From a virus: 64,000 nt of DNA. Position 1 is the stretch's first letter. Each line of letters begins with the position of its first letter. A program made the position numbers and the translations under genes. The stretch is taken from positions 32,001 to 96,000 of IMG/VR virus record IMGVR_UViG_3300043418_000120, one strand, 5' to 3'. Of this stretch, positions 1 through 64,000 are shown piece after piece. Below the pieces are notes generated by a model. The model was not told the origin of the DNA, made no database searches, and saw nothing but the letters and a program-made list of their open reading frames with translations.

Positions 1-179
1 AGCTACAAGAACAGGACGAGGGTGGCGAATACTCAAACTCTATGATGGATTATCTACGCAACAACAACGATTCTGACTACAACCTACCAAAGAAGAAGCC
101 TGTGAAGAAGCGTGCTCTTTCATCACTAGAAGTGTTCTTTGAAGAAAATGGAGATGTGACTGATGAAGACAATGTATAA
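1..179 (+). CDS. gp55: C-terminal fragment of late-transcription sigma factor gp55 (5' truncated)
   Basis: Frame 3 reads LQEQDEGGEY...SSLEVFFEENGDVTDEDNV*. The acidic tail has an SLxxFF clamp-binding-like motif, and the position upstream of gp47-gp46 matches T4 synteny. Confidence 0.65.
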   Translation, partial: LQEQDEGGEYSNSMMDYLRNNNDSDYNLPKKKPVKKRALSSLEVFFEENGDVTDEDNV

Positions 180-342
180 AGTAACTTACCGTTCAAGTGG
201 CTCTCCCGATGTGGAGTTTCGCTGGTTCACTACCACTGAAGAAGCAGCTGACTTCGCAGGTAAATTGGGGGATCGTTTCATTGAGATGAAAGAGTACAGC
301 CAACCAGAGAATTATCCACCAGCAGAATTGGATTTTAGTTAA
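163..342 (+). CDS. small hypothetical protein (59 aa)
   Basis: MKTMYKVTYRSSGSPDVEFRWF...; GGAG upstream; the stop overlaps the gp47 start (TAATG). Confidence 0.6.
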   Translation: MKTMYKVTYRSSGSPDVEFRWFTTTEEAADFAGKLGDRFIEMKEYSQPENYPPAELDFS

Positions 343-1409
343 TGAGAGTAGCAATTATTACAGACCAGCACTTCGGTGCTCGCAATGACAGCGTTGCGTT
401 TTTGAATTTCTATGAAAAGTTCTATGACAATGTGTTCTTCCCAACACTTGAACAGACGGGCATTGACACTGTTCTTATTCTTGGTGACACATTTGATCGA
501 CGTAAGTATGTGAACTTCTATGCTCTTCAGCGAGCAAAGGAAATGTTCTTTGATAAACTAGCAGCTGCGAATATCCGCGTGTATATGTTGGCTGGTAATC
601 ATGACACCTACTACAAGAACACCAATGAGGTGAACTCGCCAGACTTATTGCTTCGTGAGTATTCTAACATCTCCGTGATCGATCGTCCGCAAACAATTCA
701 TCTAGACTACGGCAACACCAATGCTGATGTGTTGATGCTACCTTGGATTTGTGCTGATAACTATGCTGAGTCGATGGCTGAATTGACAAACACAACAGCT
801 ACTCTGTGTATGGGTCACTTAGAGTTGGCTGGCTTCGCAATGTACCGTGGGATGGATTCGCATGAAGGAATGGATAAAAACATTTTCGATAAGTTTGATC
901 GGGTGTTCTCTGGTCATTATCATCATAAGTCTGATGATGGACATATCTTCTATCTCGGAAACCCTTACGAGCTTACGTGGCAGGACTATAACGATCCCCG
1001 AGGATTCCACTTGTTCGATCCAAACACAAGAGAGCTCGAGTTCGTACGAAATCCTTATACAATGTTCACGCGAATCGAATACGACGATAAAGAACAAGAG
1101 CCAATCAACCTTGACTCACTGGATCTGAAAGAACAGTATGTGAAATTGGTTGTGGTCAATAAGACTGACTACTATAAATTTGACCAATTTACTCAGAAGC
1201 TGTATAATAAGGGCTGTCATGAAGTCAAGATCGTTGAGAACTTCTCTGAGTATGAAGAAGGCGCGATTGATGGTGACATCAACTTAGAAGATACCATGTC
1301 GGTGTTGGATAACTACATTGATTCGATTCAGACAGAGTCTGATAAAGAACGAATCAAACAGTATATGAAAACTTTGTATACTGAAGCTGTGAATGTGGAG
1401 GTCGTTTGA
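342..1409 (+). CDS. gp47: recombination endonuclease subunit (Mre11/SbcD-like)
   Basis: Metallophosphoesterase motifs DQHFG, GDTFD, GNHD, SGHYH; directly upstream of gp46. Confidence 0.95.
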   Translation: MRVAIITDQHFGARNDSVAFLNFYEKFYDNVFFPTLEQTGIDTVLILGDTFDRRKYVNFYALQRAKEMFFDKLAAANIRVYMLAGNHDTYYKNTNEVNSPDLLLREYSNISVIDRPQTIHLDYGNTNADVLMLPWICADNYAESMAELTNTTATLCMGHLELAGFAMYRGMDSHEGMDKNIFDKFDRVFSGHYHHKSDDGHIFYLGNPYELTWQDYNDPRGFHLFDPNTRELEFVRNPYTMFTRIEYDDKEQEPINLDSLDLKEQYVKLVVVNKTDYYKFDQFTQKLYNKGCHEVKIVENFSEYEEGAIDGDINLEDTMSVLDNYIDSIQTESDKERIKQYMKTLYTEAVNVEVV

Positions 1410-3118
1410 TTATTTTTGAATCAGTTGAGTGGGCAAACTTTTTGTCTACTGGCAACAAAGCAAACAAAGTAATTCTGAACCGCTCATCATCAACATTGAT
1501 TGTTGGTAAGAACGGCGAAGGTAAGAGCACGATCCTTGACGCCTTGTGCTTTGGTTTGTTTGGTAAACCTTTCCGCGATATTAACAAGCCACAGTTGATC
1601 AACAGTATCAATGGCAAGAACTGTTCCGTTACTGTTGAGTTCAGTGTGGCTGGTAAGTCATACAAAATCATCAGAGGTATGAAGCCAACAGTGTTTCAGA
1701 TTATCTGTAACGGCGAGGTTATCAACCAAGACGCAGCAGCTAAAGATTACCAAAAGGTTCTTGAGCAACAAATTTTAAAGCTGAACTACAAGACATTCAC
1801 GCAAGTGGTTATCTTGGGTTCAGCCTCTTTTGTTCCATTCATGCAGTTGCCTGGAGGTCAGCGTCGTGATGTTATTGAAGACATTCTTGACATCCGTGTG
1901 TTTAGTACCATGAACACATTATTGAAGCAACGCATGCAGGAGACTAAAGATGAGATTGCGTCAACTGAAGCAGCACTCGCGCTGGCGCGTGAGAGGGTTG
2001 TTGCTCAACAGAAAACCATTACTCTCTTGCAAGAAAGTCGAGCGAGTAATGTTTCAGCTGTATCGAAAAAGATTGAAGATAATGTGGTCGCTATCGAAAC
2101 CAGCTCTCAACACATTGATGTTCTCAATGAAGACATTGAGAAACTTAAACAGAGCATCGAAGACAGGAAGACTGTACTTGACGACATCGAGAAAGCCAAG
2201 AGAATTGCTCAGAGCAAGACGAGTAAGATATCTGACCTCTCCTCAACCGTGGAGTTTTTCAAAGGCAACGATGCGTGCCCACAGTGTGAGCAGGGTATCC
2301 CGCATGATCACAAGTCCAGAATTATTGACCAAATCACAGTAGAGATGGGTAAGAATGAGCAGATGGTTGAGGAGTTGTCCGCAGCAATGATCAAACTCAA
2401 TGCTCGTCTTGAACACATCAACGCTGTTCAGGAACAGATTACTGACAAGAACATTGAAGTGTCAACAGCCAACCAAACCGTTACTGTTCTGAACAAACTC
2501 AATAAGCAGCTGGCAGCTGAACTTGAAGAGATGAAGAAAGACACTGGTAATGTGGACGATGAGAAGGCTAAGTTGAAAGAGATGGCAGCTGCTGCTATCG
2601 CACACTTGGATCGTAAGACACAGTTGATTGACAAGCGTCAGTATGAAGAAGTTGCTGGATTGTTGCTGAAAGACTCAGGAATTAAAACAACAATTATCCG
2701 TGAGTATCTGCCTGTGATGAACAAGCTGATCAACAAATATCTGACAGCCATGGACTTCTATGTTCACTTTGAGCTTGACGAAACCTTTACCGAAAGTATC
2801 AAGGCTCGTCACCGCGATGAGTTTACTTACGCAAGTTTCTCTGAGGGTGAGAAGATGCGTATTGACTTGGCTATCCTGTTCACATGGCGTCAAGTAGCTA
2901 AGATGAAGAACAGCGTCAACACCAACCTGTTGATTCTTGATGAGATCTTTGACTCAAGCCTTGACGTAGCAGGAACAGATTATTTCTTGTCTCTGATGAA
3001 CGCTATGGGCGAACATACTAATGTGTTTGTTATCAGCCACAAGGGCGATCAGCTGTTTGACAAGTTCCACTCAGTAATTAAGTTCGAAAAGCATAACGAA
3101 TTTTCTGTGATTGCTTGA
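1406..3118 (+). CDS. gp46: recombination endonuclease ATPase subunit (Rad50/SbcC-like)
   Basis: Walker A GKNGEGKS, coiled coil with CPQC zinc hook, FSEGE signature, LILDE Walker B. Confidence 0.95.
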   Translation: MIIFESVEWANFLSTGNKANKVILNRSSSTLIVGKNGEGKSTILDALCFGLFGKPFRDINKPQLINSINGKNCSVTVEFSVAGKSYKIIRGMKPTVFQIICNGEVINQDAAAKDYQKVLEQQILKLNYKTFTQVVILGSASFVPFMQLPGGQRRDVIEDILDIRVFSTMNTLLKQRMQETKDEIASTEAALALARERVVAQQKTITLLQESRASNVSAVSKKIEDNVVAIETSSQHIDVLNEDIEKLKQSIEDRKTVLDDIEKAKRIAQSKTSKISDLSSTVEFFKGNDACPQCEQGIPHDHKSRIIDQITVEMGKNEQMVEELSAAMIKLNARLEHINAVQEQITDKNIEVSTANQTVTVLNKLNKQLAAELEEMKKDTGNVDDEKAKLKEMAAAAIAHLDRKTQLIDKRQYEEVAGLLLKDSGIKTTIIREYLPVMNKLINKYLTAMDFYVHFELDETFTESIKARHRDEFTYASFSEGEKMRIDLAILFTWRQVAKMKNSVNTNLLILDEIFDSSLDVAGTDYFLSLMNAMGEHTNVFVISHKGDQLFDKFHSVIKFEKHNEFSVIA

Positions 3119-3143
3119 CTTTAATTCGGTTCTAGGGTATAAT
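3115..3143 (+). promoter_or_regulatory. sigma70-like early promoter
   Basis: TTGACT-17 bp-TATAAT; the spacer resembles the cassette-repeat spacers. Confidence 0.85.
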
Positions 3144-3166
3144 CAATGCTTAAACAGGAGAAGAAG

Positions 3167-3313
3167 ATGCCCTTTAAAACCGACTCTGAATTAGCCGAAT
3201 TTTTAGATTTTTTGGCCGACCTTTCGTTAAGCGGCGAGACTTTTGAAATCTGTCTCGGTGCGCTTAAACTTCAAACGGCTCTTAAAGAAGCCTACGGCGA
3301 AAACCTAATTTAA
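3167..3313 (+). CDS. small hypothetical protein, paralogue of 15438..15584
   Basis: MPFKTDSELAEFLDFLADLSLSGETFEICLGALKLQTALKEAYGENLI; AGGAG upstream. Confidence 0.7.
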   Translation: MPFKTDSELAEFLDFLADLSLSGETFEICLGALKLQTALKEAYGENLI

Positions 3314-3319
3314 GTCAAT

Positions 3320-3391
3320 ACCCCTACGGACAGTAGGGGTTTTGGTTTACTTTAAATAGATGTTCAGGTATAATCAAGCTATGGAAAGGGG
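3320..3391 (+). repeat. palindrome-promoter cassette repeat
   Basis: CCCCTAC-GGACA-GTAGGGG, then TTTACT-17-TATAAT and an SD. Confidence 0.85.
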
Positions 3392-3398
3392 AAATGAT

Positions 3399-3845
3399 AT
3401 GAGAAAAGGCGAAATGTTAGACAAGGCTCTGTTACTTGCTACCAACTCTCACCATGGGCAGTTCGACAAGGGTGGCGCTCCCTACATTCTCCACCCAATC
3501 AAGGTTATGCACTACATCAAGTCTGACGATGAAGAACTGATGTGTATGGCTCTCCTACATGATGTTGTAGAGGACTGTGACGTTACCTTTGTGGACTTGG
3601 AAGCCATCGGCATGAGCAAGCGTGTTATTGATGCTGTTCGCTGCTTGACTAAGCAACGTGGCCAAACCCTTGCTGAGTACAAGGAGGTCATCTTCTCGAG
3701 CCGTGACGCGATGCGTGTCAAGATGGCTGACTTACGACACAACAGCGATATCCGTCGTCTGAAGGGCGTGACTGAGAAGGATCTGGTTCGTATGGAAAAG
3801 TACCATAGGTTCTATCTTGAGATCCAAGCAAAACTGGCTGAGTGA
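3399..3845 (+). CDS. HD-domain hydrolase, SpoT/Mesh1-like
   Basis: HHGQFDKGGAPYILHP, ALLHDVVED and KMADLRHN motifs typical of the RelA/SpoT hydrolase domain. Confidence 0.85.
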   Translation: MRKGEMLDKALLLATNSHHGQFDKGGAPYILHPIKVMHYIKSDDEELMCMALLHDVVEDCDVTFVDLEAIGMSKRVIDAVRCLTKQRGQTLAEYKEVIFSSRDAMRVKMADLRHNSDIRRLKGVTEKDLVRMEKYHRFYLEIQAKLAE

Positions 3846-3851
3846 AAGTGC

Positions 3852-3880
3852 TTGACATTTATTCAGCTTTGATGTATAAT
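3852..3880 (+). promoter_or_regulatory. sigma70-like promoter
   Basis: TTGACA-17-TATAAT. Confidence 0.85.
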
Positions 3881-3907
3881 TGATCCATCTTAACAAGGAG
3901 TTTATAG

Positions 3908-4621
3908 ATGAAACGTGCAATTGTGCCAGTTCTACTGGCGATGATGCTTGCTATGTCAGGCGTCGCAGATGCCAAAGGTGGTGGTAGTTCTGGTGGCGGT
4001 GGTCACGGAGGTGGTGGTGGTGGTCATGCCAGTTCAGCTGGTGGTCGCTCGTCTTCAAGTTTCTCTTCGGCTGGTTCTTCAGCAGGTAAGGGTGGTTATA
4101 ACTCAGGTTCGTATGCTGCTGCGCGACCTGCTGCTCCAGCTCCAGCAGCCCCTACTGCTCGTACCACAACTACAACTACATCGACAACAACTCACACCCG
4201 AACAGCTGGTGGTGGTATGGTTGGTGGTGGAATGTATTACGGTGGGATGGGTATGGGTTACGGATACTCGAACGGTTTACTGACTGGTTTGATTATCGGT
4301 AACATGATGCACCCACATAACACTGTTGTTTACACTGGCGGTGGTCAGTACAGTAACAACGCACTGTTGTATCCTGATGGTCGTGTTGTTAATCAACAAG
4401 GTTATCAAGTAGGTACATATCAGAATGGGCAGTTTACTGCTATGAATGGTGGAATGGTTGCTCAACAAGCACCAGCTGATGCTTTGAACAGCGCACCACA
4501 ACAAGTCGCACAGCCTGTGATCATTAAGTCTGGTCCATCCGCTGGCGATATTATCGGCATGATTTTGCTTGGCTTTATCTGTGTCATCTTGTTCATTATC
4601 TTGATTGGAATTATTGTATGA
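3908..4621 (+). CDS. Gly/Ser/Thr-rich exported membrane-anchored protein
   Basis: N-terminal signal-like hydrophobic stretch, low-complexity middle, C-terminal TM helix. Confidence 0.75.
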   Translation: MKRAIVPVLLAMMLAMSGVADAKGGGSSGGGGHGGGGGGHASSAGGRSSSSFSSAGSSAGKGGYNSGSYAAARPAAPAPAAPTARTTTTTTSTTTHTRTAGGGMVGGGMYYGGMGMGYGYSNGLLTGLIIGNMMHPHNTVVYTGGGQYSNNALLYPDGRVVNQQGYQVGTYQNGQFTAMNGGMVAQQAPADALNSAPQQVAQPVIIKSGPSAGDIIGMILLGFICVILFIILIGIIV

Positions 4622-4968
4622 GTTCACTTGCTATCGTTGCTGTTTTTCTTTTCCTACTAATTATTGTAGTTCTTATCATTCGGGAGACTTCTATGTGGAA
4701 TTATTACGACGTTGGTCCTGACGAAGAAGTCACGACAACCACAACTACAACCACGACAACAACTGTTGATGAAGGTTCTGGTTACGCGCAACCTGCCCGT
4801 CCGCTGGGTCTGAATGTCAATGGCATTCCTATCGTTGGCATGCTTCAACGTCAGTACGAAGGCACCACGCCTTATGTTATTGATCCAGTCGACAAGGATA
4901 AGGTTTTCCTGAACACCCGCGATGATATCTACGAAGATGGCGCTGGTAAAGTCTGGGGATTAGTCTAA
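4618..4968 (+). CDS. membrane-anchored hypothetical protein with poly-Thr
   Basis: N-terminal TM helix; ATGA overlap with the upstream gene. Confidence 0.7.
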   Translation: MSSLAIVAVFLFLLIIVVLIIRETSMWNYYDVGPDEEVTTTTTTTTTTTVDEGSGYAQPARPLGLNVNGIPIVGMLQRQYEGTTPYVIDPVDKDKVFLNTRDDIYEDGAGKVWGLV

Positions 4969-5288
4969 TGAAGTATCCTCCCATAGGTTGGGAGGATGTG
5001 AATATTACCACCAATGATTATGCCATTGGTGGTAAACTCATTACAGCAAGCATATCCGTCGACGAACTAAGATACGAAGAGATAATCAGTAAGCCAAATG
5101 GTAGAGAAGAAATACGTAAGGCTCTTGTTGAACAGCTTGCGCAAGAAATGTTAAATAGGTCATTGGTTGAGATTAACCAAAGAGATGATCCGCTGACACT
5201 TACGAAAGTAATCGTCGCCCGTGCTTATGTTGCCCCCGACTCAACCGTTAAAATCCTACGCACAATTGCGAACAATAAAATATTATGA
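4968..5288 (+). CDS. hypothetical protein
   Basis: Translationally coupled ORF in the operon. Confidence 0.7.
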   Translation: MKYPPIGWEDVNITTNDYAIGGKLITASISVDELRYEEIISKPNGREEIRKALVEQLAQEMLNRSLVEINQRDDPLTLTKVIVARAYVAPDSTVKILRTIANNKIL

Positions 5289-5452
5289 CAGATGAAGAAG
5301 TAGTTACCTACTACAACGACATGGTTGACTACTTCGGCAGTCTCCCAAACTTTGAGCATGAGCCAATTCGTTTCGCTTACTATGTGCGCCTATTTAAATA
5401 CATGAGAGAACGAAATGAACGTGTCCCTGATAACAACGACAACGAGACCTGA
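5285..5452 (+). CDS. small hypothetical protein
   Basis: MTDEEVVTYYNDMVDYFGSLPNFEHEPIRFAYYVRLF...; ATGA overlap. Confidence 0.6.
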   Translation: MTDEEVVTYYNDMVDYFGSLPNFEHEPIRFAYYVRLFKYMRERNERVPDNNDNET

Positions 5453-5714
5453 GGGTGTTAAGTGGTGGAACGAAGCAGACCCAACTGCTTCAGCTGCGTA
5501 TGGTGAGTTTATTAACAGTCACCCAGCAGTAATTGAACGCGAAGTTCAGAATGTTGATGAGAATACCATCATTGCGCGCATCGTATTGCCTGATGCTGCT
5601 TCGCTTGGTGAGTTCTTACTAGATCTTCACGCAACACCATTCTACATCTCACGACAGCTGTATAACAAAGAGAATGGCATTGTTCAGCTGCCTAGCTACT
5701 CATTTACATCGTAA
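5415..5714 (+). CDS. hypothetical protein
   Basis: 99-aa ORF with phage-like codon usage; converges on the minus-strand gene. Confidence 0.65.
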   Translation: MNVSLITTTTRPEGVKWWNEADPTASAAYGEFINSHPAVIEREVQNVDENTIIARIVLPDAASLGEFLLDLHATPFYISRQLYNKENGIVQLPSYSFTS

Positions 5715-7559: not shown

Positions 7560-7585
7560 TGTCGTAATGAATTGAAAGGACACCA

Positions 7586-8209
7586 ATGAGAGAACCAGTC
7601 GTACAACCGATCTTTCCAACACCAATCACAATCTCCCAAATCGAACGCGACTTCACACCCGAAGAACGACAGTTCTTTGCCAGCCAGAACAGCAACCAAG
7701 CAAAGAACGTTGGTAATAGAATGGGCAAGGATAACTACGTGTTGAATCAACCAGCTCTTGCTGGCATCAAGCAAGAAATTGATGGTGTCCTGAAGCAATA
7801 TGTTGACAACATCATGAATCCAATCAGCAAGGACATTGAACTTTATGTCACACAGTCATGGTTGAACTACACAAAGGCTGGTGAATGGCACCACAAACAT
7901 ACACATTCTAACAGTGTAATCAGCGGTGTGTTCTATGTTGCTGCCGATGAGAATCTTGATAAGATTTGTTTCATTAATGACACTTACCGTACCATCAAAA
8001 TTCCAGCTGTTGAGAACAATCATTTCAACGCAGACACATGGTACTTCACAGTTAAAACAGGGTTGCTTGTCCTGTTCCCATCACACCTACAACACATGGT
8101 TGAGATGAAAGAAAGCAAGCATAAGAACACCCGAATCAGCCTTGCGTTTAACACATTCATTCGCGGCACCTTGGGTCAGAACAACGCACTAACGGAATTG
8201 AAATTATGA
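7586..8209 (+). CDS. putative 2OG-Fe(II) oxygenase (TIGR02466-like)
   Basis: SWLN...HHKHTHSNSVISGVFYV...LFPSHLQHMV...RISLAFN. Confidence 0.85.
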   Translation: MREPVVQPIFPTPITISQIERDFTPEERQFFASQNSNQAKNVGNRMGKDNYVLNQPALAGIKQEIDGVLKQYVDNIMNPISKDIELYVTQSWLNYTKAGEWHHKHTHSNSVISGVFYVAADENLDKICFINDTYRTIKIPAVENNHFNADTWYFTVKTGLLVLFPSHLQHMVEMKESKHKNTRISLAFNTFIRGTLGQNNALTELKL

Positions 8210-8685
8210 TGTTGAAAGAGATGCAAAAGTTTGCTAAGCACATGCATGGCACCTACGTGGCGTTTCAAGTTGATGCTCTAAGCGCAGCCAAACTTGATCA
8301 CTTCTGCCAGACACGATTGGGTTTAGGTCATGACAGAGTTCACGCTAGCAAGTACCACACAACAGTCATCTACTCACGTAGCCCTGTTCCTGATGCTGAA
8401 GACTTGTCCGAAAAGACAAGCGCATGGGGGAAGGCTATCGGCTATGACATTTTCCAAACAAACGGCGAGCGCTGTCTTGTTATGCTTGTTGAATGCGAAG
8501 ATGCTACTAACCTAAATGCTGCTCTCGGTCGTCGTGGTGCAACTTCAGACTTTCCAACATACAATGCGCACATCACATTGAGCTATGCATTCAACGGCGA
8601 CGAGCGCGAGCTGCCTTTGCCTGACTTCAGAATCACATACGATCGTGTTGTCGTTGAACCACTTGACCCTTTACACATAGATTAA
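8206..8685 (+). CDS. acb1: anti-CBASS 2H phosphodiesterase (T4 gp57B/Acb1 homologue)
   Basis: GTYVA, HTTVIYSR, GATSDFPTYNAHITLSY and EPL align with T4 Acb1 (GLYVA, HSTICYSR, GATHDFDDYTPHITLSY). Confidence 0.85.
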   Translation: MMLKEMQKFAKHMHGTYVAFQVDALSAAKLDHFCQTRLGLGHDRVHASKYHTTVIYSRSPVPDAEDLSEKTSAWGKAIGYDIFQTNGERCLVMLVECEDATNLNAALGRRGATSDFPTYNAHITLSYAFNGDERELPLPDFRITYDRVVVEPLDPLHID

Positions 8686-20451: not shown

Positions 20452-20649
20452 ATGGAAAAGTACTTGGTAAAGGCTCAACACTATGACATGGCGGTTGGCT
20501 TGGAGGTTTGGTTGGTTCGAGAGGCAACACCCCAGACAGAGTTTTATGGCAAGAAGTATTGGTTGGTTACAACTAATCCGGACAAGGTGGTGGCAGACGA
20601 TGGCTACCTTCGAATTATCCCCGACAGCAAACTGGAGCCAGCTCCATGA
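20452..20649 (+). CDS. hypothetical protein
   Basis: 3' part of ORF 20389..20649; the start is uncertain. Confidence 0.55.
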   Translation: MEKYLVKAQHYDMAVGLEVWLVREATPQTEFYGKKYWLVTTNPDKVVADDGYLRIIPDSKLEPAP

Positions 20650-50001: not shown

Positions 50002-51381
50002 ATGGTTAAAGTAATTGTAGCAGATAAAATTCATGATTCAGAACACTTGCTCGGCATGTTTGTCGACGAGTCGCACTACGATGTGTTAATTGAAGAAGAC
50101 ACAGATTGTTATCTACCAGCAGATTGTGACGCTGCTTCGCAGGCAAACTGTGAAACCGATCGCGACTGTTCTAATTGTTCGAAGGGTATGAACGAGGCGC
50201 GTATCGCCTTCAAATTCCGTAAGAACTTCTTCACCAAAGAAGAACAAGATAATGCATATGCTGGTCTGCGCGAAGCTGCTGTTCGTACCGAAAACCGTGG
50301 ACTTGCTTCTGGTATCAAAGAAGGTACATCCGTAACAGGCGAAGGTCGTGAGTGGGTTACCAACTATCAAGAAGAAATGATTCATGCGATCCTGAGTGCT
50401 CGTACTGAGTCCTTGATTGAAGGTGATGTGATTGAAGAAGTTCGTTCACGTTTCCCAACCCAAGCCGATCGTCTAAAGGCTTTGGGCTCTGGTAAGAACA
50501 ACGTATGGGTTATCTCGCGTTTCCGTAACAAGTTCAACTTCGACGAGTTCATCGACAGCATCATTCCTCTCGATCGCGAGAAGCGTGCTACTGAGATGGA
50601 AGAAGTCATGAAGATGATCAGTGAGACATCTTATGGCAACCCTGTTGACTCAGGTATCGCTGGTTGGTACGATCGTTATCCACGTATCCCTTATGGTCGT
50701 GCGACAACTTACACTCGTGACAACTTCGAGAAATTCCAGTTGGCTTACCCATTCCTTCAAACTCTTGCGAAGGGGTTTAAAGACTTGTTGCCATGGCGTT
50801 ACAACAACCAGATGGAAGCTGCTAAGAAACTTGACCCACGTTACCTTGTGCCTGGAACACCATTCACCACAATTACCGTGAACAAGACTTTCCGTACAGC
50901 TGCTCACCGTGATGCTGGTGACTTGGATTCTGGTTTGTCGAACTTGTTGACTCTATCTAACGATGGTCGTTACACAGGTGGCTACTTGATTTTCCCAGAG
51001 GTTCGCATTGCTGTTAATGTGCGTCCAGGCGACTTGCTGTTGGTTAACAACCACGAAGTTATCCACGGTAACACGCCAATCGTATGTGAGGAAGGTTCTG
51101 AGCGCATTTCTTTGGTATGTTATTTCCGTGAGAAAATGCTTGAGCTTGGCACTCACGAATATGAAGATGCTCGCTATCGTTACGTCGAATCTCGTCGTCT
51201 GAATAAAGAACACCCAATGTGGAAGAAACTCTGGAATGGTGTTTCTCCAGGCATGTGGGATGACGCTGAATGGTACGATTTCCTTCGTAAACAACCGAAC
51301 GGCGACGCAATGGTAGCAAAGTACCACCCTGACGCGAACAACGCCGACTTGGGCGACTTGGGAGATGAATGGTTCGCTTGA
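50002..51381 (+). CDS. TET/JBP-family 2OG-Fe(II) nucleic-acid dioxygenase
   Basis: SGIAGWYD...PFTTITVNKTFRTAAHRDAGD...GDLLL...HGNT...RISLVCYFR parallels the kinetoplastid JBP1/2 oxygenase motifs. Confidence 0.85.
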   Translation: MVKVIVADKIHDSEHLLGMFVDESHYDVLIEEDTDCYLPADCDAASQANCETDRDCSNCSKGMNEARIAFKFRKNFFTKEEQDNAYAGLREAAVRTENRGLASGIKEGTSVTGEGREWVTNYQEEMIHAILSARTESLIEGDVIEEVRSRFPTQADRLKALGSGKNNVWVISRFRNKFNFDEFIDSIIPLDREKRATEMEEVMKMISETSYGNPVDSGIAGWYDRYPRIPYGRATTYTRDNFEKFQLAYPFLQTLAKGFKDLLPWRYNNQMEAAKKLDPRYLVPGTPFTTITVNKTFRTAAHRDAGDLDSGLSNLLTLSNDGRYTGGYLIFPEVRIAVNVRPGDLLLVNNHEVIHGNTPIVCEEGSERISLVCYFREKMLELGTHEYEDARYRYVESRRLNKEHPMWKKLWNGVSPGMWDDAEWYDFLRKQPNGDAMVAKYHPDANNADLGDLGDEWFA

Positions 51382-51429: not shown

Positions 51430-52290
51430 ATGCGATCGAATTATTGGTCATGTTCTAAATTTGCTGACTGGCTTCGTGGTACTGACAAGCCACCAGCAGC
51501 AACTTCGGAAGGCTGGCGCTCATGGCGCCTTGCCTCTAAGAAGACACACCCAATCCGTCATTGGATCGTTGAAGAAGGTCTTGACAATCTTCAACGATTC
51601 GTCTATTGGCCAGCTGACAAGTTGAACGACATTCGTTACTACATCAACAACCGTTGGGTGGCACGTTCGCATTCACTGACAGCACATCCTCGCGATATCA
51701 AGCCAGGATCTTGGTGCGATGTTGGTAACCGTTTCTTGCCTTGTATGTTCAATGAGTTGGTTGACTTTGTTGAAGTTGAATCAGCATGGATGCATGTTGT
51801 TTGGAACGACGAGAATCGCGACAAGTACAATGTTCCATTCTGGCGCAAGCAATGGTGGACACGTTGGGGAATGGTATGGCGTTGTAAGGAAGCTGGTCTT
51901 GATCATTTGAACTGGGCTGCTCAGTTGCGTTTCGATGATGAGTTCATTGAACAAGACAGCCCATCATACGGCAAGTTCACACCACAAGCCATAAATGCTC
52001 AGGAAATTCTAAGCCTTTACACTTGGTGGACTGAGAAGCGTCCAGCTCGTCCCGATCCATATGAAGTGTCAGGTTGGTCAGCATTGTGCGCTGAGCGTAG
52101 AGCTGCTCGTCGCGCCGAAACTGGCGACAGCAAGGATGACTTCTTTATCTCCGACGAGAAGACACCAGAAGCTAGACAGAAAACAACTGCTGCTCTAGAT
52201 GCGCTACATATGTTAGAGGCAGAATATGAAAAAGAAGACGAAGAAATGATGATTCGTCTAATCAAAGTACGACACGGTCTCTGGACTTAA
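51430..52290 (+). CDS. Trp-rich conserved phage hypothetical protein
   Basis: FNELVDFVEVE...LYTWW...EDEEMMIRLIKVRHGLWT. Confidence 0.8.
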   Translation: MRSNYWSCSKFADWLRGTDKPPAATSEGWRSWRLASKKTHPIRHWIVEEGLDNLQRFVYWPADKLNDIRYYINNRWVARSHSLTAHPRDIKPGSWCDVGNRFLPCMFNELVDFVEVESAWMHVVWNDENRDKYNVPFWRKQWWTRWGMVWRCKEAGLDHLNWAAQLRFDDEFIEQDSPSYGKFTPQAINAQEILSLYTWWTEKRPARPDPYEVSGWSALCAERRAARRAETGDSKDDFFISDEKTPEARQKTTAALDALHMLEAEYEKEDEEMMIRLIKVRHGLWT

Positions 52291-52302: not shown

Positions 52303-53652
52303 ATGAAGATTATGATGGTAATGCACACCTTCAACAATTTTGGAGGTATTATCAACCACTGTGAACATCTAGTCGCAGGGTTGAAAGAGCTTGGTCATGA
52401 GGTTACGTTCGCGTATCTGAAAGGCAACAAGACAGTTCGACCAGTTGAGATTCCAACTGAGTTGAAGGAAGGTTATGAGATTGGTGTTGGCACAGGTTAT
52501 CCTGTACACCAAGGCGATGGTTGGATCGCACCTTATTACTCATACAAAGTTCAAGAATCGATTGACAAATTTGTTGTAGATGCTAACCAACACGATTTGG
52601 TTATTTGGCAGTCTATCTTTGGCTTCAAGAATAAAGACACCGAGAAGTCTCTAATGTGGTTGCCGATGGTTGAGAAAATCACTGCCAAGCAAGTCCCAAT
52701 TATTCATGATGCTAACTTGAAGAAGCTGTACCCTTGGATCCAGTTGTTTGAGAAACACTTTGCTGGTCTGGCATGCGTTCACCCAGCAGCTTATGACTCA
52801 GCTGACTTTATGGATGTTCCACGTGCTCTGATTTTGAACCCACAGGACATTGCTAATATTCCCCAGCCACCCTTGTTTTCGAACCAAGAAAACAAGGTTT
52901 TGTCTATCCAGACATTCAAGCGTTGGAAACGTGTTGATGATTTGATTCGTGCTGTACCACACATGAAAGAGGTTAAGACTCTGGTTGGCGGTTATGGTAT
53001 TGAAGCAGCTTACATGATGTCCAAGGACAAATGTAAGGACGAGTACTACTGCACTTCGCAGTATGACCCAGATCGTACCCCAGAGATGGATGGTAAGCGT
53101 ATTTGGCAAAACGCCGAGGAATCAGGTAACTTTGAGTACCTTGGATTTATCTCAGGAGCAAAGCGTGATGAAATTCTATCAACATCTAAGTTTTTGGTTG
53201 ACCCCTCTTGGTCAAATACTTTCGGCGAGCATTTCAACCGTGTGGTTGTGGACGCTATGCGCATTGGTGTCGTACCAATTGCCATAAACTTTGGTGTCTC
53301 TGACAACGAAGAAGGTCAAGGCGTCGTTCTGAAGGCAGGTATCAACTACTGTATGATCAAGAAAGGCTCTACTCCAAAGCAGTATGCCGACAAGATTAAA
53401 GAGTTTTGTAACATGTCTCAGGCTGATTACCAACAAATGCAGCTAAATAACTATGAACTGATTAAACAGTTCGATCGAAAGGTAATTGCTCAGCATTACA
53501 TCGACTTGGCTATGGGTAAGGAGACAGGCTATCTGAACGAACTTAGAACCAAGACGAACCATGACCCAAATATCCCTAGAGTTGCGCGAAACATGTTTGA
53601 AGAACACTTCGAACAACCCAGCGCACAGTCTTTGGACGATTTCTTCGGGTGA
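52303..53652 (+). CDS. GT-B glycosyltransferase (candidate DNA glycosyltransferase)
   Basis: N-terminal FGGIINH..LVAGLKELGHEV, KRWKRVDDLIRA, EHFNRVVVDAM (E-x7-D); C-terminal SLDDFFG. Confidence 0.8.
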   Translation: MKIMMVMHTFNNFGGIINHCEHLVAGLKELGHEVTFAYLKGNKTVRPVEIPTELKEGYEIGVGTGYPVHQGDGWIAPYYSYKVQESIDKFVVDANQHDLVIWQSIFGFKNKDTEKSLMWLPMVEKITAKQVPIIHDANLKKLYPWIQLFEKHFAGLACVHPAAYDSADFMDVPRALILNPQDIANIPQPPLFSNQENKVLSIQTFKRWKRVDDLIRAVPHMKEVKTLVGGYGIEAAYMMSKDKCKDEYYCTSQYDPDRTPEMDGKRIWQNAEESGNFEYLGFISGAKRDEILSTSKFLVDPSWSNTFGEHFNRVVVDAMRIGVVPIAINFGVSDNEEGQGVVLKAGINYCMIKKGSTPKQYADKIKEFCNMSQADYQQMQLNNYELIKQFDRKVIAQHYIDLAMGKETGYLNELRTKTNHDPNIPRVARNMFEEHFEQPSAQSLDDFFG

Positions 53653-54358: not shown

Positions 54359-55663
54359 ATGGCGTCAATTGTAGGTAGCTCAAAATACGGTGAAGGACAT
54401 AAGGTTGTTCTGAAAGAAGCCAGTAAGATGGCAGCTACCACTGTATCCGCATTCTCAGAACATAAGTACAAAGCTGGCGAAGCGGTCTTTGAGATTGCTA
54501 AGAAGGTATCCATCAAAGAAATCAACACAATCATCCAGATTGGTGCTGGTAAAGACAGCATTATGTTAAAGGACACCAAGGGTAAGTATGTCTTACTCAA
54601 AGGTTCCGAATCCTCAATCAACAATTCCTTCAATCACTTCAGCGATAACTCTAAGAGCAACACTGGCGATCTTACTGAACTGAAAGAAATTGTCAGCATG
54701 TATTTGTTCGAGTCGATCGTTGAGAACAACAAACTTCTAACTGAAGACCAGCTAATCAAGAAGCTGGGCGACAAGGCTAAACTCTACAAGACACTGTATT
54801 ACACAAGTGCCAAGGCTCAAGCTGATGAGTTGAAGAAGTTTATGAAGGGCGCAAAGGGTTATACCTACGAACGCCAACAACAAGACAAAACAGTTGCGAT
54901 CTATGCTCTTGGTCGTAAGTTATCTGGCAAAGCCAACGACAACTGGAATCCTGCTGACGTATGGATGTTCAAGAAGGCTATGAAGCTAGACACTATCCTT
55001 GCTTCTAAGTCAATTGACGAGCTCAACAGCCACATTGCCAATGCCTTTAAGAAGAAGGAAATTATCCCAATCTCCTTGAAGCAAGTTGAAGGCGATAAGG
55101 CTAAGATGGATATTGTCGACCCATCGTCGCAAATGACACAGAAGCTCGACTACGACATGACATTCCTGAAGGTTGACTTGTCTGACACATTTGCCAACTT
55201 CATTGTTCAAACCAAATCTGGTTTCGCTGTTCGATGCGGATTTAAAGCATCGGCAACTACACTGAACGTATCACTAGAAGGTCGCTTCATCGGCGCAGGT
55301 TTCCAACTTGGTGCTGTTGATGCTAAGCAGTATGGACCACACGTTAAACAAAACTACAACTACCAAGTGCGTAGTGGTGTTGGTGTTACATCTGTTGACC
55401 ACACAAAAGCGAAAGCCGAACTGAAAGCAATGTTCGCTGCGTATCCTCGCCTATCTAATACATTGAAAGATTATAAGCAAGCTGAAGCTATCTTCAACAA
55501 GGCTGATAAACTTACCAAGGATAGATTCGCAAACCTAATCTCTTACTTGTATAGTTTCTTGATGGCACCGAAGGGCGCTAAGTTTAAAGACAATATGACA
55601 TTCTGCTACTTCAGCTCAAAGAAGCTGACTGCTGGTAGCTGTATCTATACAATCATCCACTAA
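54359..55663 (+). CDS. putative PD-(D/E)xK restriction-fold nuclease
   Basis: TELKE...DNWNPADVW...IPISLK resembles an E...PD...(S)xK catalytic arrangement. Confidence 0.55.
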   Translation: MASIVGSSKYGEGHKVVLKEASKMAATTVSAFSEHKYKAGEAVFEIAKKVSIKEINTIIQIGAGKDSIMLKDTKGKYVLLKGSESSINNSFNHFSDNSKSNTGDLTELKEIVSMYLFESIVENNKLLTEDQLIKKLGDKAKLYKTLYYTSAKAQADELKKFMKGAKGYTYERQQQDKTVAIYALGRKLSGKANDNWNPADVWMFKKAMKLDTILASKSIDELNSHIANAFKKKEIIPISLKQVEGDKAKMDIVDPSSQMTQKLDYDMTFLKVDLSDTFANFIVQTKSGFAVRCGFKASATTLNVSLEGRFIGAGFQLGAVDAKQYGPHVKQNYNYQVRSGVGVTSVDHTKAKAELKAMFAAYPRLSNTLKDYKQAEAIFNKADKLTKDRFANLISYLYSFLMAPKGAKFKDNMTFCYFSSKKLTAGSCIYTIIH

Positions 55664-57311: not shown

Positions 57312-57925
57312 TGAAAAGATTTATCGACTATTTGTTCGAAGCTGCCGAGAAGCATCATGTGCTTGCGTTCGGTCGTATGAACCCAATCACTTCTGGTCAC
57401 GAGGCTGTTGTTAACAAGGTACACGATGTTGCCAAGAAACATAAAGCTGATCACACTGTTGTTGTTTCACATAGCCAAGACGCTAAGAAGAATCCTTTGA
57501 CTGGTGAACAAAAGGTTAAACATGCCAGCCGAGCATTCCCTGGAACAAAGGTGAAGTCTGCTAGCAAGGAACACCCTACAATCCTACACCATGCTGCTGA
57601 ACTACACAAGGCTGGCGTGCAACACTTACACGTTGTAGCTGGTTCTGACCGCCACCATGAGATGCATACACTGCTTCATAAATACAACAACGGCGAAAGC
57701 CATAAGCATGGTTCTTACCACTTCAAGTCTATCACAGTACACTCTTCAGGCGCACGCGACCCTGACGCTGAAGGAACAACTGGTATGTCTGCTAGCAAGA
57801 TGCGCGAACATGCTAGTAAAGGCGAGAAGGATAAATTCCATGCAGGCGCTCCATCAAAGATGAGCACTAAACACAAAGACGAAATGTATCATGAAGTAAG
57901 AAAGGGCATGGGGCACCATGACTGA
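57311..57925 (+). CDS. His-rich HxGH-class (cytidylyltransferase-like) nucleotidyltransferase
   Basis: FGRMNPITSGH, KKNPL, VAGSDR, GMSASKMR; N-terminus MKRFIDYLFE. Confidence 0.85.
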   Translation: MKRFIDYLFEAAEKHHVLAFGRMNPITSGHEAVVNKVHDVAKKHKADHTVVVSHSQDAKKNPLTGEQKVKHASRAFPGTKVKSASKEHPTILHHAAELHKAGVQHLHVVAGSDRHHEMHTLLHKYNNGESHKHGSYHFKSITVHSSGARDPDAEGTTGMSASKMREHASKGEKDKFHAGAPSKMSTKHKDEMYHEVRKGMGHHD

Positions 57926-58877
57926 TTTAAACGATCTGTTCAAAGCAGCAGCTGACGAGAAGAGAAAACTCCGAGAGCAGCAAGAAAACTCTCCAGCTGG
58001 CAAGGCGTTGAAGGCAGTCCAAGAACGCCTAAAAGAACAGAACGAAATCGCTGCGCTATTTAGAGCCAAGCAAGCAGAAGTTGTTCAAGAAGCCATTCCT
58101 GAATTTGTGCCAGAACCGACTCCGACTGCAGCGCCAGATAACCTTGTCAATGCGGCAGTTACTGTTGCTCAGCAAACCAATCACGACTCGTTCCAGCAGC
58201 CAGCGCCTCAGCAAATTGACCAGAATATTGCTGCAATGATCAAGAAGATGCAATTCCTTGAGCAAGCTATTGGCAAGATTGCCGCTACTGGGCCAGGATC
58301 TGGTGAAGTAAACCTTCGATGGTTGGACGACGTTGATAGAAGCACGATACAAGATAATCGTTATCTGCGCTACAGCGCTGCAAGTAAAAAGTTCATCTTC
58401 GATGACGTTGATGCTGTTGGAGAGTATCTTACATTTTGGGACACAACCAGTAGAAACGTCACACAATCTGCGCAATATTTGCTAGAGCTGAACTCAACAA
58501 ATGGGTCTCGAAACATAACACTAGAGAATTCTTCTAAGATAACATTTACTAAAGCTGGCACATACATCATCAGTTACAGTTTACAGCTGGTTAATACTGG
58601 AAACGAACAGGAAGATGTGAATGTGTGGATCAAGAAAAATGGCCAAAACGTTGAAGACACAAACAGCATCTTTACTGTACCAGCAAGAAAGAATACGTCA
58701 ATTACTGGTAAGATGGTAGCTACTTCACCGATACCTGTTGATGTAAATGCTGGCGACTACATTCAAGTTTACCTGCATACAGACTCAAGTACTGTGAATA
58801 TTGATACTGTTAACGACGATTCTGTACATGGAATTCCTAGATCCCCCAGCGCAATTTTAGTTGTAACTAAAATGTAA
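57918..58877 (+). CDS. probable structural protein with C-terminal C1q/jelly-roll-like domain
   Basis: GSGEVNLRWLDDVD; ITFTKAGTYIISYSLQ...VWIKKNG...AGDYIQV. Confidence 0.65.
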   Translation: MTDLNDLFKAAADEKRKLREQQENSPAGKALKAVQERLKEQNEIAALFRAKQAEVVQEAIPEFVPEPTPTAAPDNLVNAAVTVAQQTNHDSFQQPAPQQIDQNIAAMIKKMQFLEQAIGKIAATGPGSGEVNLRWLDDVDRSTIQDNRYLRYSAASKKFIFDDVDAVGEYLTFWDTTSRNVTQSAQYLLELNSTNGSRNITLENSSKITFTKAGTYIISYSLQLVNTGNEQEDVNVWIKKNGQNVEDTNSIFTVPARKNTSITGKMVATSPIPVDVNAGDYIQVYLHTDSSTVNIDTVNDDSVHGIPRSPSAILVVTKM

Positions 58878-58882
58878 ATCTA

Positions 58883-58889
58883 ATAAATA
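58883..58889 (+). promoter_or_regulatory. candidate late promoter ATAAATA
   Basis: TAATAAATA in an intergenic gap. Confidence 0.6.
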
Positions 58890-58918
58890 AGTCATATATT
58901 TTAACATAGATGGATTAA

Positions 58919-60811: not shown

Positions 60812-60822
60812 TAGGAGCCGAT

Positions 60823-61254
60823 ATGGAATTAGAAATGTCCCTGAGAGTTGCCCTTGGCAATACTTTCATTATGTACTTCAAGGCGCATAGCCACCACTGG
60901 AATGTGGTTGGTATTGAGTTCTCTCAACTACACTCTTTCTTCGGCGATATCTACGAAGACGCATTCGACGCAGTTGACGGCTTGGCCGAAGAGCTCCGCG
61001 CTCTGAATGTAATGGCTCCAAAGACTTTGTCTGAAATGTACCATTATAAGACAATTAGCGAAGGAAATGTCGCTGTAACTGCTACAGAGATGCTGGAAGA
61101 CCTCAAAAATGCGAATGACGGAGTAATTGAATCCCTAAATAAGTCATTAGAGATCGCGACTCGTGAAAATAAGCAAGGGCTTGTTAACATGTTAGCCGAT
61201 CGTATCGACAAACATAGCAAGCACGGCTGGATGATTGGGAGTCACCTAAAATGA
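60823..61254 (+). CDS. dps: Dps-like ferritin
   Basis: KAHSHHWNVVG..F..LH..F...Y......D.LAE.LRAL; KHGWM. Confidence 0.9.
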   Translation: MELEMSLRVALGNTFIMYFKAHSHHWNVVGIEFSQLHSFFGDIYEDAFDAVDGLAEELRALNVMAPKTLSEMYHYKTISEGNVAVTATEMLEDLKNANDGVIESLNKSLEIATRENKQGLVNMLADRIDKHSKHGWMIGSHLK

Positions 61255-63308
61255 GTTACGACGATAACCGCACTGGATTTACTAAGCGCCCTCGTGAGGA
61301 CGACGAAGGTCACAGCAAGCCAAAATTCAAAGCCAAGTCTACAATGGATCGCCCACATACTGTTCACGTGGACGGTAAGGCATGGAAGAAGTTCGACAAT
61401 GGACACCAAGCTCATGCTGCAGCCAAGACCCTAGAAGCTAAAGGTAAGAAAGCAACTGCTATCGCTCACTTCAAGGAAGAAGCTGTCGATGAATCTATGA
61501 CTGATTCATGGAAGAGCGTTCAATCAATGGACAAAGGTTCTGTTCTTTCTGGTAAAGATGGCGCTAAGAAACGCCTTGCTTACTTGAACGCTGTTCATGC
61601 CCACCACAAGAAATTTGGCAATGATACTAAGAAAGTCAAGAGTGAGATTGAAAGTATCAATCGCTCACGTGTTGCTGAGGAAGTTGAACAAGTTAAAGAA
61701 GACACTCTTGTTGAAGGCTCATACGAAAAAGCTGAAGAAAATAAGCGTTCGGCTGAAGCAGCTAAGTCTCAAGCTAGACCATTCGACTACCATATGCATA
61801 TGGCTGACCACCACGACAATATGTCGCAGTGGCATGCATCAAAGGGTCGTCATGGCGAAGCAGATCGTCATGGAGAAAAATCTGACGAACATCACGAAAA
61901 AGCTATGTCTCTTAAAGAAGCTACTGCATACTACAACAAACCATCTTTCCTGAAGAAGATGGGTCGCGTCGCTAAGCAAGAACGTTTGGCTCGCGAGAAA
62001 AAAGAAAAGGAAGCCAAACCAGTGAAAGAAGATACTGATCTAGACGAAGGTCTTAAGCCAGGATGGATGCTAAAAGCTGACACGAATTTGGCCACTAAAC
62101 TCAAAGCGCAACTAGACCGCAAGAAGCACGTTCTTGGTAAACCAAGTCCAGGATATAAGCCCGATGAACCAAAGAAGAAAGTTTCTGAGGAAGTTAAGGT
62201 TTCTACAAACTCTTACGGCAAGAAGTCGACTCGTGAAGTATTGAACGCACTAAGCGGCAAGCAAGATATGTCTCCAGTCCAACAAGACATTAGCCCTGAT
62301 GCTTCTAAGAAGCCAGTTGGTAAAGTGTTGTCTGCTCTGAAGGGCAAACAAACAATGTCGCCAGTGAAGGAAGAAGTTCTCGACGAAGCTCGCGTTAATG
62401 GTCGCGAGTACGCGAGCCATGGTTTGATGCACCCTGATCACGCTAAGATGGACATCCATAAAGTATCTGGCCAACACGTCGACTTCTACGCTAGCAAGAC
62501 TGGTGATAAGATGCAAGGTAAGGTTGTTAAGAACGACGGCAAACACGTTCACATCCAAGCGCATTCCGATAAAGAAATCGGCGATGGTAAGCTACATAAA
62601 TTCAAAGTTCAAAGCTCACTGCCAACACAACACAACGAAGAAAAACAACCAGAAGGTTTGTATTCTTCAAAGCGTCAAGAAACTGACGGACAGCGTATTG
62701 CTCGTCTAGCTAAAGAAAAGCGCCAATCTGAGAAGAAAGAAAAGGTTGAAGAAGCTAAGAAAGAAGCCGCAGTAATGTGCGCTAACTGTGGTAAGCCATA
62801 TCACAAAGGTGAGTGTGATGGTGAACCAGAAAAAGAACTCAAAGAGGAAGAAGGTTATACACTTCACTCTAAGGAAACAAATGCGGACGGTACAATTACA
62901 ATCATCTTAAAGTCGCCAAGCGGCAAGTTGATCCGTCACAAAGGCAAAGGCGCAGCCAATGCTGTTAAGCAACGCTATGGCATTCAATCTGGCGTTCAGG
63001 AAGAAACTGAAACTCTAACAAAGGAAGACACGATGATCAATTCATTCAAATCATACATGCAAGAAGATCTGGACGAGGCAGCATGGCCAGGTACGCCAGA
63101 GTACAAAGCTAAATTCCCTGAAGTTAAGCGACTAGCTAAAGGCGAAAAGCAAAAGGGTGCTAAGGGCACTATCACTGGTACTGGTACTGGTGTTAAACAC
63201 GAACGTGATTACGAAAAGGCTGAGAAGGAGACTGGCGCTTCAGAAACTCAAGAGAAGCGTGGTCGTGGTCGTCCAAAAGGTTCAGCTTCTGGCGCTCGTC
63301 AAAAGTAA
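61251..63308 (+). CDS. Lys/His-rich modular protein, probable internal head polyprotein
   Basis: Short modules separated by (V/L)xE(E/A/D/G) linkers; C-terminal AT-hook KRGRGRPKG. Confidence 0.7.
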   Translation: MSYDDNRTGFTKRPREDDEGHSKPKFKAKSTMDRPHTVHVDGKAWKKFDNGHQAHAAAKTLEAKGKKATAIAHFKEEAVDESMTDSWKSVQSMDKGSVLSGKDGAKKRLAYLNAVHAHHKKFGNDTKKVKSEIESINRSRVAEEVEQVKEDTLVEGSYEKAEENKRSAEAAKSQARPFDYHMHMADHHDNMSQWHASKGRHGEADRHGEKSDEHHEKAMSLKEATAYYNKPSFLKKMGRVAKQERLAREKKEKEAKPVKEDTDLDEGLKPGWMLKADTNLATKLKAQLDRKKHVLGKPSPGYKPDEPKKKVSEEVKVSTNSYGKKSTREVLNALSGKQDMSPVQQDISPDASKKPVGKVLSALKGKQTMSPVKEEVLDEARVNGREYASHGLMHPDHAKMDIHKVSGQHVDFYASKTGDKMQGKVVKNDGKHVHIQAHSDKEIGDGKLHKFKVQSSLPTQHNEEKQPEGLYSSKRQETDGQRIARLAKEKRQSEKKEKVEEAKKEAAVMCANCGKPYHKGECDGEPEKELKEEEGYTLHSKETNADGTITIILKSPSGKLIRHKGKGAANAVKQRYGIQSGVQEETETLTKEDTMINSFKSYMQEDLDEAAWPGTPEYKAKFPEVKRLAKGEKQKGAKGTITGTGTGVKHERDYEKAEKETGASETQEKRGRGRPKGSASGARQK

Positions 63309-63337
63309 ACCAATAACAATAACAAAGGAGAACAACC

Positions 63338-63850
63338 ATGGCACTATGGGGAAAACAAGACGCTGCTGCTCTTTCGCAAGGCACAACAATTGGCGTTACT
63401 AACGGCTCGACAGCCGTAACAGGTTCTGGTACAGCTTTCTTGAGCGATATCAAGAACGGCGACACACTAGTAATCGCATCACCAACAACACAGATTAAGT
63501 ATCGCGTGTTGTCAGTTACATCTAACACTGCTCTAGTGTTGGCCGATAACTTCCAAGGAACAACAAACGCTACATTGGCTGTTGCTAAAGTTCAAGTTCA
63601 ACAATCGCCAAAGTTTGTTTACCAAGCTGCTGTTCCAGTAACTGGTTCTGGCGCATTGGCAGAAGTGTTTGGTGTTGACGCAGTTGAAGCTAAAGTTGCT
63701 TCTAACCCAAAGGTGGCAAGTCCAGGTTGGGTTCGTGTTAAGACTGGTACAGGCGGTCGCTCAGGTCGCGTCACTACTGAAGTTTTGGTAGCAGGTCGTA
63801 CTCTGATTGCTGGCGATAATGGCGACGATTCTACGTTTGCTGACGCTTAA
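63338..63850 (+). CDS. probable virion structural protein
   Basis: MALWG..; VTNGSTAVTGSGTAF; PGWV...GRV.TEVLVA. Confidence 0.7.
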   Translation: MALWGKQDAAALSQGTTIGVTNGSTAVTGSGTAFLSDIKNGDTLVIASPTTQIKYRVLSVTSNTALVLADNFQGTTNATLAVAKVQVQQSPKFVYQAAVPVTGSGALAEVFGVDAVEAKVASNPKVASPGWVRVKTGTGGRSGRVTTEVLVAGRTLIAGDNGDDSTFADA

Positions 63851-63881
63851 TAAATAAACTGAATAACAGAGGAACATAAAC

Positions 63882-64000
63882 ATGGCATCTAAAAAGATTT
63901 CAGAACTAAACTCAGCGGCAACGTTGACTGGTGCTGAACGATTTTTGATTGTCCAGTCAGGCGATAACCGTCAACTAACACTTGACAGCTTGCTAGCTGG
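63882..64000 (+). CDS. probable tail/fibre-associated protein (3' truncated)
   Basis: MASKKISELNSAATLTGAE..IVQSG; ATAAATA at 63850 and GAGG SD. Confidence 0.65.
   Translation, partial: MASKKISELNSAATLTGAERFLIVQSGDNRQLTLDSLLA

Follow-up and report, generated by a model that had tools for sequence, protein, structure and literature searches.

Restriction-site avoidance, that is, the avoidance of palindromes, was reportedly described in virulent double-stranded DNA phages by Sharp 1986 and Rocha et al. 2001. Other viruses spare their own genome from their own nuclease, as in the restriction-modification (R-M) systems of the Chlorella viruses and in T4, with EndoII/IV and hydroxymethylcytosine; cytosine hypermodification by a phage TET enzyme and glycosyltransferase was reportedly described by Burke et al. 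2021. The palindrome CCGG is the site of HpaII and MspI, AAGCTT that of HindIII, and GGCC that of HaeIII. Here we describe the near-absence of CCGG from a stretch of viral DNA of 64,000 nucleotides (the window), which corresponds to bases 32001-96000 of the 173,880-bp virus record IMGVR_UViG_3300043418_000120, rated complete by CheckV. As in known palindrome avoidance, short Type II palindromes lie far under the expectation from composition or codon usage, several sites are affected, and the sets of avoided sites are lineage specific; the general phenomenon has been documented (Rusinov et al. 2018, PMC6286503). The genome differs from typical cases in depth, since an observed/expected ratio of 0.014 for a 4-mer over 174 kb ranks among the extremes, and in having no nameable cognate host enzyme. 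We conclude that the phenomenon is a known one, a virulent phage avoiding several restriction sites, and that it is seen here in unusually clean form.

The nearest counterparts are the marine T4-like cyanophages S-PM2, Syn9, P-SSM2, P-TIM68, and S-T4, which belong to the same virus family in a wide sense and lack CCGG to the same degree. GGCC depletion accompanies the CCGG loss in most such cyanophages, but not in S-T4 (235 observed against 220). Unlike these CCGG-free cyanophages, the virus studied here has no psbA, encodes a beta-type two-piece transfer-messenger RNA (tmRNA), falls in a separate clade with uncultured relatives, carries a cluster of TET/JBP-type dioxygenase and glycosyltransferase genes, and additionally lacks AAGCTT. 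Literature on the avoidance of CCGG or of palindromes by cyanophages was searched, and within the library covered no paper reported a cyanophage CCGG hole.

The original prediction, made by reading the sequence by eye, had claimed that CCGG is nearly absent, with a single site in the window; exact counting bore this out. The site is as follows.

20578 to 20581: the sole CCGG of the window, in the context AATCCGGAC (a TCCGGA hexamer), within a small open reading frame (ORF) at genome positions 52389-52649.

The whole genome holds two CCGG, at positions 52578 and 128964. Dinucleotide shuffles of the window gave an expectation of 90 ± 9.5 sites, a second-order Markov model 42.6, and base composition 157; for the genome, the Markov and base composition values were 119 and 424. 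Synonymous codons were also swapped in 200 shuffles that kept all proteins and the codon usage, which gave a genome expectation of 139 when swapping was confined to each gene and 166 when it was genome-wide. The observed count corresponds to a z score of about -15, and the lowest of the 200 shuffles still contained 111 CCGG. Measured against both the Markov and the codon-shuffled expectation, the ratio is therefore remarkable, and codon usage does not account for it.

The word is lost although its parts are common. The trinucleotides CCG and CGG occur about 950 times each in the genome, and both are still in use as codons (144 and 58 times, respectively). Split by reading frame, CCG-Gnn was found once against 47 expected, nCC-GGn once against 96, and nnC-CGG not at all against 15. 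Proline, serine, threonine, and alanine codons ending in C, common elsewhere, precede glycine 0, 0, 0, and 1 times, respectively. No CCGG lies in the 17.7 kb of non-coding DNA, where 15 to 34 would be expected. Depletion in all three frames and in non-coding DNA argues for selection on double-stranded DNA and not on translation. A flanking T does not rescue the word, as TCCGG occurs 3 times in the genome against 69 expected. The CCGG hole is real and statistically very strong, and the strong selection that had been proposed for it holds, since the word is lost regardless of frame, also outside genes, and beside other avoided Type II palindromes.

The proposal of a hole in a single motif did not survive the counts for other words, which refer to the whole genome and the codon-shuffle null unless another is named. 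AAGCTT is absent genome-wide, against 61 expected (35 by the Markov model), and is also absent from the 80 kb of the closest relative, G001; the inner AGCT is not depleted (762 against 831). GGCC had been thought to occur freely, as had CCWGG. In fact, GGCC is found 95 times against 265 (in the window, 41 times against a Markov expectation of 115), and CCWGG is reduced as listed below; GCGC, CGCG, and GATC, for which the same had been said, are all near expectation. The loss of GGCC is graded by its flanks. Sites without a T immediately 5' on either strand are missing (0 against 106), those with one flanking T are reduced (41 against 119), and TGGCCA, with the T flank on both strands, is not (54 against 41). 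TGGCCA also accounts for all 6 GGCC in G001, which is the closest TET-bearing relative, and for all 3 in P-TIM68, and P-SSM2 has the same bias among its GGCC sites. The flank rule could reflect the flank specificity of an enzyme or shielding by a modified T. We considered whether the surviving GGCC are forced by Trp-Pro dipeptides and rejected this, as it applies to only 13 of the 95 sites. Further avoided words are listed here.

TGCA: 320 observed, 587 expected.
CCWGG: 109 observed, 211 expected.
ACCWGGT half-sites: 5 observed, 64 expected.
CCGCGG: 1 observed, 15 expected.
ACGCGT: 4 observed, 24 expected.
GGTACC: 5 observed, 22 expected.
CTTAAG: 9 observed, 35 expected.
AGGCCT: 0 observed, 17 expected.
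CGGCCG: 0 observed, 13 expected.

CTATAG is likewise avoided. With A-runs and Shine-Dalgarno-like words set aside, the most depleted words are nearly all Type II palindromes or extensions of them, and to infer a single specific agent of selection is too narrow. As for the words set aside, A-runs are well under the codon-shuffle expectation (AAAA/TTTT, 1274 against 2133; AAAAAA, 37 against 153), which may represent avoidance of slippery homopolymers, and AGGAG is low (140 against 264).

The virus is a virulent T4-like myovirus with a large genome. Its T4-like gene set comprises gp46/47-like nucleases, a family B DNA polymerase, UvsX, gp41 helicase, RNase H, gp32, and gp59; it also encodes baseplate and tail-tube proteins, ribonucleotide reductase, ThyX, dCMP deaminase, PhoH, MazG, and CobS. 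Among cultured phages, the nearest DNA polymerases come from Synechococcus and Prochlorococcus myoviruses (52 to 55% identity), and those of the nearest uncultured relatives are 67 to 68% identical; a megablast search with 10 kb of the phage gave no match in a phage collection. In a tree of 85 DNA polymerases, the virus clusters with four CCGG-free relatives (support, 99); the link of this clade to HTVC008M is uncertain, with long branches.

CCGG was measured in 80 related IMG/VR loci and in the whole genomes of cultured phages. The closest relatives have no CCGG in 80 kb, and many cyanomyovirus-like contigs are free of it or nearly so. Relative to Markov expectation, S-PM2 has 0 of 92, Syn9 1 of 138, P-SSM2 0 of 83, and S-T4 13 of 152; P-TIM68 also has none, where the Markov expectation is only 2 and that from base composition 96, CCG and CGG themselves being rare in that genome. 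Depletion is not seen in the T4-like phages S-CRM01 (290 against 272) and HTVC008M (51 against 38), nor in a 13-member uncultured sister clade of the group to which our virus belongs, and it is partial in the Methylophilales phage Melnitz (15 against 57). The polymerase tree implies at least 7 changes of CCGG state, regain in shallow clades included, so that the pressure goes on and off. Three T4-like isolates from Synechococcus WH7803 have 174 (S-SKS1, which is without a C5 methylase), 0 (S-PM2), and 13 (S-T4) CCGG. Self-methylation as the strategy of CCGG-rich relatives was considered and rejected, a C5 methylase being found only in S-CRM01 and not in S-SKS1, HTVC008M, or the uncultured G003 and G004.

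Other lineages have private holes: TTCGAA in S-T4, P-SSM2, and G003; GATC (23 against 498) and CGCG (1 against 61) in Melnitz; and GGCC in the Stenotrophomonas phage DLP_6 (0 against 538 by the Markov model and 1017 by composition). Hole sets that differ from lineage to lineage are the pattern expected from host-specific sets of enzymes. Cyanophages that keep CCGG strongly avoid TCCGGA, in which T flanks the word on both strands (G003, 0 of 9 expected; S-CRM01, 2 of 37; P-SS2, 1 of 12; Syn5, 3 of 10), which suggests a separate, TCCGGA-specific pressure in them.

The hole is probably the outcome of ordinary multi-site restriction avoidance, directed at nucleases met during infection, that is, host or environmental restriction enzymes. 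A host system of the MspI/HpaII type is the most likely candidate cause, and we infer a host restriction enzyme as the selecting agent behind a hole whose depth, frame independence, extension into non-coding DNA, companion holes, and lineage-specific, changeable distribution were all shown here, as was the lack of a phage-borne C5 or N4/N6 methylase and of a cutter from a known family. The injected phage DNA would be unmethylated at CCGG, and each site would present a target to a CCGG-specific double-strand endonuclease encountered on infection; this would most probably be a Type II enzyme with the specificity of HpaII/MspI, encoded in strains within the host range. Genomes that lose sites by silent third-position or intergenic substitutions would survive better; CCGG can be removed almost completely because protein sequence never forces it. 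The parallel loss of AAGCTT, T-unflanked GGCC, ACCWGGT, CCGCGG, ACGCGT, and GGTACC would then be due to other enzymes in the host pool.

Several results weigh against restriction by the host. We used the picocyanobacterial family, the host group of the cultured CCGG-free relatives, as a proxy. A search of 401 species genomes of this family gave no hit for RE_HpaII and none for Endonuc-MspI, the second being a weak negative, as its positive control matched no genome. The marine Synechococcus genomes sampled hold CCGG at 0.86 to 0.95 of Markov expectation. S-SKS1 keeps the word (174 against 185) although it shares its isolation strain with the CCGG-free S-PM2 and S-T4; the podoviruses P-SSP7 (27 against 32) and Syn5 (186 against 197) are at Markov expectation, as is the siphovirus P-SS2 (232 against 235). 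Thus, these phages lack CCGG while the hosts and their other phages keep it, which weakens the host-restriction view without removing it. The trait is common in T4-like phages and seemingly limited to this group, and its origin could instead be intrinsic to that lineage. On the other side of the balance, restriction enzymes are notoriously hard to recognize from sequence, the natural host range differs from the laboratory hosts, and podoviruses may have other means of anti-restriction. C5 methylases were present in 37 of 301 picocyanobacterial genomes, and three picocyanobacterial genomes of low guanine-plus-cytosine content had 8, 16, and 10 CCGG in samples of 40 to 60 kb, against 8, 21, and 17 expected.

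The original prediction had offered a phage-encoded CCGG cutter or modifier as the alternative and had named one ORF as a putative nuclease.

54359 to 55663, plus strand: ORF 54359, with the motif P198-A-D200 ... S239-L-K241.

Both parts of the motif, which gave rise to the idea of a nuclease, are invariant among ORF 54359 homologues. The protein has no Pfam family and matches PHROG 1462, of unknown function. An AlphaFold2 model (predicted local distance difference test score [pLDDT], 87) gave no match to the PDB with Foldseek; VIA-align with the whole-protein model matched residues 1-98 and 341-405 only, with Z of about 5, and these matches correspond to an SH3-like N-terminal domain and a C-terminal helical bundle. 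Homologues with 53% identity lie among the baseplate genes of the T4-like contigs L312 to L315, in which CCGG is close to expectation (8 to 11 against 11 to 14). The contig L316 also carries a homologue and has 44 CCGG against 31, and the gene is missing from the CCGG-free S-PM2, Syn9, P-SSM2, and S-T4. CCGG depletion therefore does not co-occur with ORF 54359, and with homologues in CCGG-normal contigs and no nuclease family or fold match, the identification of this protein as the CCGG cutter was not supported. The same is true of a phage-borne modifier or a cutter of known family: at an E value of ≤1, six-frame searches of the genome gave no match to the C5 (PF00145) or N4/N6 (PF01555) methylases, Dam-type families not having been searched, nor to RE_HpaII (PF09561) or Endonuc-MspI (PF09208). 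The recognizable nucleases of the phage are a SegE-like GIY-YIG enzyme, a PD-(D/E)XK (Cas4-like) enzyme, a TnsA-like enzyme, RNase H, and gp46/47. Each of these is either shared with CCGG-rich relatives or lacking in CCGG-free ones; the GIY-YIG nuclease, for example, is absent from S-PM2 and present in CCGG-rich S-SKS1. Finally, about 240 ORFs were compared by tblastn with five CCGG-free and three CCGG-rich complete T4-like genomes. No phage ORF was present in all of the CCGG-free and none of the CCGG-rich genomes profiled, a comparison that a core gene with changed specificity or a non-homologous cutter would escape.

The CCGG hole had also been linked to base modification, through the following genes.

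50002 to 51381, plus strand: TET/JBP-type 2-oxoglutarate (2OG)-Fe(II) dioxygenase (Pfam Tet_JBP; E value, 5.6e-26).
51430 to 52290, plus strand: conserved Trp-rich, all-helical protein between dioxygenase and glycosyltransferase, not a recognizable methylase.
52303 to 53652, plus strand: GT-B (group 1) glycosyltransferase (Pfam Glycos_transf_1; E value, 6.9e-11).

The arrangement is similar to that in T-even and TET-glycosyltransferase hypermodification, with a DNA dioxygenase and a glycosyltransferase adjoining the replication genes of a T4-like phage; unlike in TET-glycosyltransferase cytosine hypermodification, no C5 methylase accompanies TET here. ORF 51430 belongs to a very large uncharacterized family (5289 homologues at an E value of ≤0.001, about 60% identity); it has no Pfam or PHROG match, and its AlphaFold2 model (pLDDT, 79) has no PDB fold match with Foldseek. 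The glycosyltransferase is kept at 78% in the closest relatives. The block of five genes formed by TET/JBP, ORF 51430, the glycosyltransferase, ORF 53689, and ORF 54359 is common only to the closest relatives; locus L015 has TET alone of the five. Many genomes are CCGG-free without having this block. Relatives that lack the TET/JBP-glycosyltransferase cluster are just as depleted of CCGG (G002, with 0, in addition to S-PM2, Syn9, P-SSM2, and S-T4), and the word is normal in phages that bear TET/JBP (DLP_6, 701 against 625; Cr30, 40 against 42; L316, as above). Site avoidance and modification thus vary independently among the relatives tested, no co-occurrence of CCGG depletion with the dioxygenase/glycosyltransferase pair was seen, and the proposed tie between hole and modification does not hold. 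In L316 (JGI contig Ga0207193_1000128), positions 259-5606 encode a gp41 helicase, Tet_JBP, PF18724 (ADDT), and an inositol-1-phosphate-synthase-like gene, the ORF 54359 homologue lies 5 kb downstream of this modification module, and GGCC occurs once against 29 expected.

These results bear on the alternatives to host restriction. In self-avoidance, a nuclease intrinsic to the lineage, be it an altered core gene product or an unrecognized restriction fold such as ORF 54359, would cut CCGG in host or competitor DNA. The idea is shared with the Chlorella virus R-M systems and T4 EndoII/IV, whose own target is lacking or masked, and it would suit the concentration of the CCGG-free state in T4-like phages with podoviruses, siphovirus, and hosts keeping the word, the lack of HpaII and MspI homologues in the 401 host-family genomes, the lack of a protective C5 or N4/N6 methylase in the phage, and the PD...SxK-like motif of ORF 54359. 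Unlike in those systems, however, no such nuclease was found here: phyletic profiling yielded no gene, the distributions of the GIY-YIG enzyme and of ORF 54359 run counter to that of the hole, the HpaII and MspI families are absent from the genome, and a phage cutter would leave the other co-avoided palindromes unexplained. We regard self-avoidance as unlikely. Somewhat less so, though still on the unlikely side, is a reading in which CCGG absence is a long-lived trait of a large T4-like (Kyanoviridae-type) radiation, driven by an undescribed CCGG-directed nuclease and not by known host systems of the HpaII/MspI type; as part of this reading, the lineage without psbA probably does not have a cyanobacterial host. 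If this is true, the agent would be either a widespread enzyme of defense or of mobile elements, acting against T4-like infections, or a CCGG-preferring enzyme of the T4-like core, and GGCC shielded by a flanking, possibly hypermodified, T would be a second new element.

Two further explanations were weighed. If the TET/JBP-glycosyltransferase pair hypermodifies thymine, words that consist solely of C and G could not be shielded and would be deleted; thymine is a plausible substrate because the genes lack a C5 methylase partner, and the graded survival of GGCC with 0, 1, and 2 flanking T, like the restriction of G001 to TGGCCA, could be shielding. This modification gap is nonetheless improbable, because CCGG and the cluster are distributed independently, AAGCTT, TGCA, and CTATAG are avoided despite containing T, and TCCGG is not rescued by its T. 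In addition, DLP_6 has TET/JBP yet no GGCC at all, TGGCCA included, and the TGGCCA bias is shared by P-TIM68 and P-SSM2, of which P-SSM2 has no tblastn match to the phage TET/JBP, the Tet_JBP profile being unsearched in both. Passive loss by mutation, through deamination of C5-methylcytosine or another context bias, is highly improbable. Among the one-substitution neighbors of CCGG, only the deamination products CCAG/CTGG are raised, by 8% (1583 against 1462), and the excess of about 120 is roughly the missing number of CCGG. This excess is compatible with removal through silent transitions, and no mutational cause is needed for it; third-position transitions are the easiest silent route for selection too, so that it does not discriminate. 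Moreover, the phage encodes no C5 methylase, a bias cannot reach 1.4% of expectation with CCG and CGG at their observed numbers, CCGG has been regained in shallow clades, and AAGCTT and other avoided words contain no CpG.

Two further features bear on the host. Beyond the window, at genome positions 123038-123426 (L113:7038-7426), lies the permuted two-piece tmRNA, for which ARAGORN gave the tag ANESSFLMAA and the best Rfam scores were 146 bits (tmRNA_permuted) and 140 bits (beta_tmRNA); 29 transfer RNA genes come after it. It hints at a host with a two-piece tmRNA, possibly a betaproteobacterium. Neither psbA nor psbD was found in the phage genome, and together with the beta-type tmRNA this means that the host need not be a cyanobacterium. 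The phage tmRNA has partial similarity to the tmRNAs of Stenotrophomonas and Methylophilales T4-like phages. Within the window, a homologue of an anti-CBASS protein adjoins an oxygenase gene.

7586 to 8209: 2OG-Fe(II) oxygenase adjoining the Acb1 homologue.
8206 to 8685, plus strand: homologue of the anti-CBASS protein Acb1 (Pfam PF23474; E value, 3.4e-21).

Two points reach past ordinary restriction avoidance. The genome extends the CCGG hole of most marine T4-like cyanophages, for which no cutter has been identified, to a lineage with different accessory genes. The graded GGCC rule is a precise clue, either to the specificity of an enzyme or to the protective reach of the TET/JBP-glycosyltransferase modification. 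Taken as a set, the holes predict the specificities of the nucleases that this uncultured phage meets and could help to find its host.

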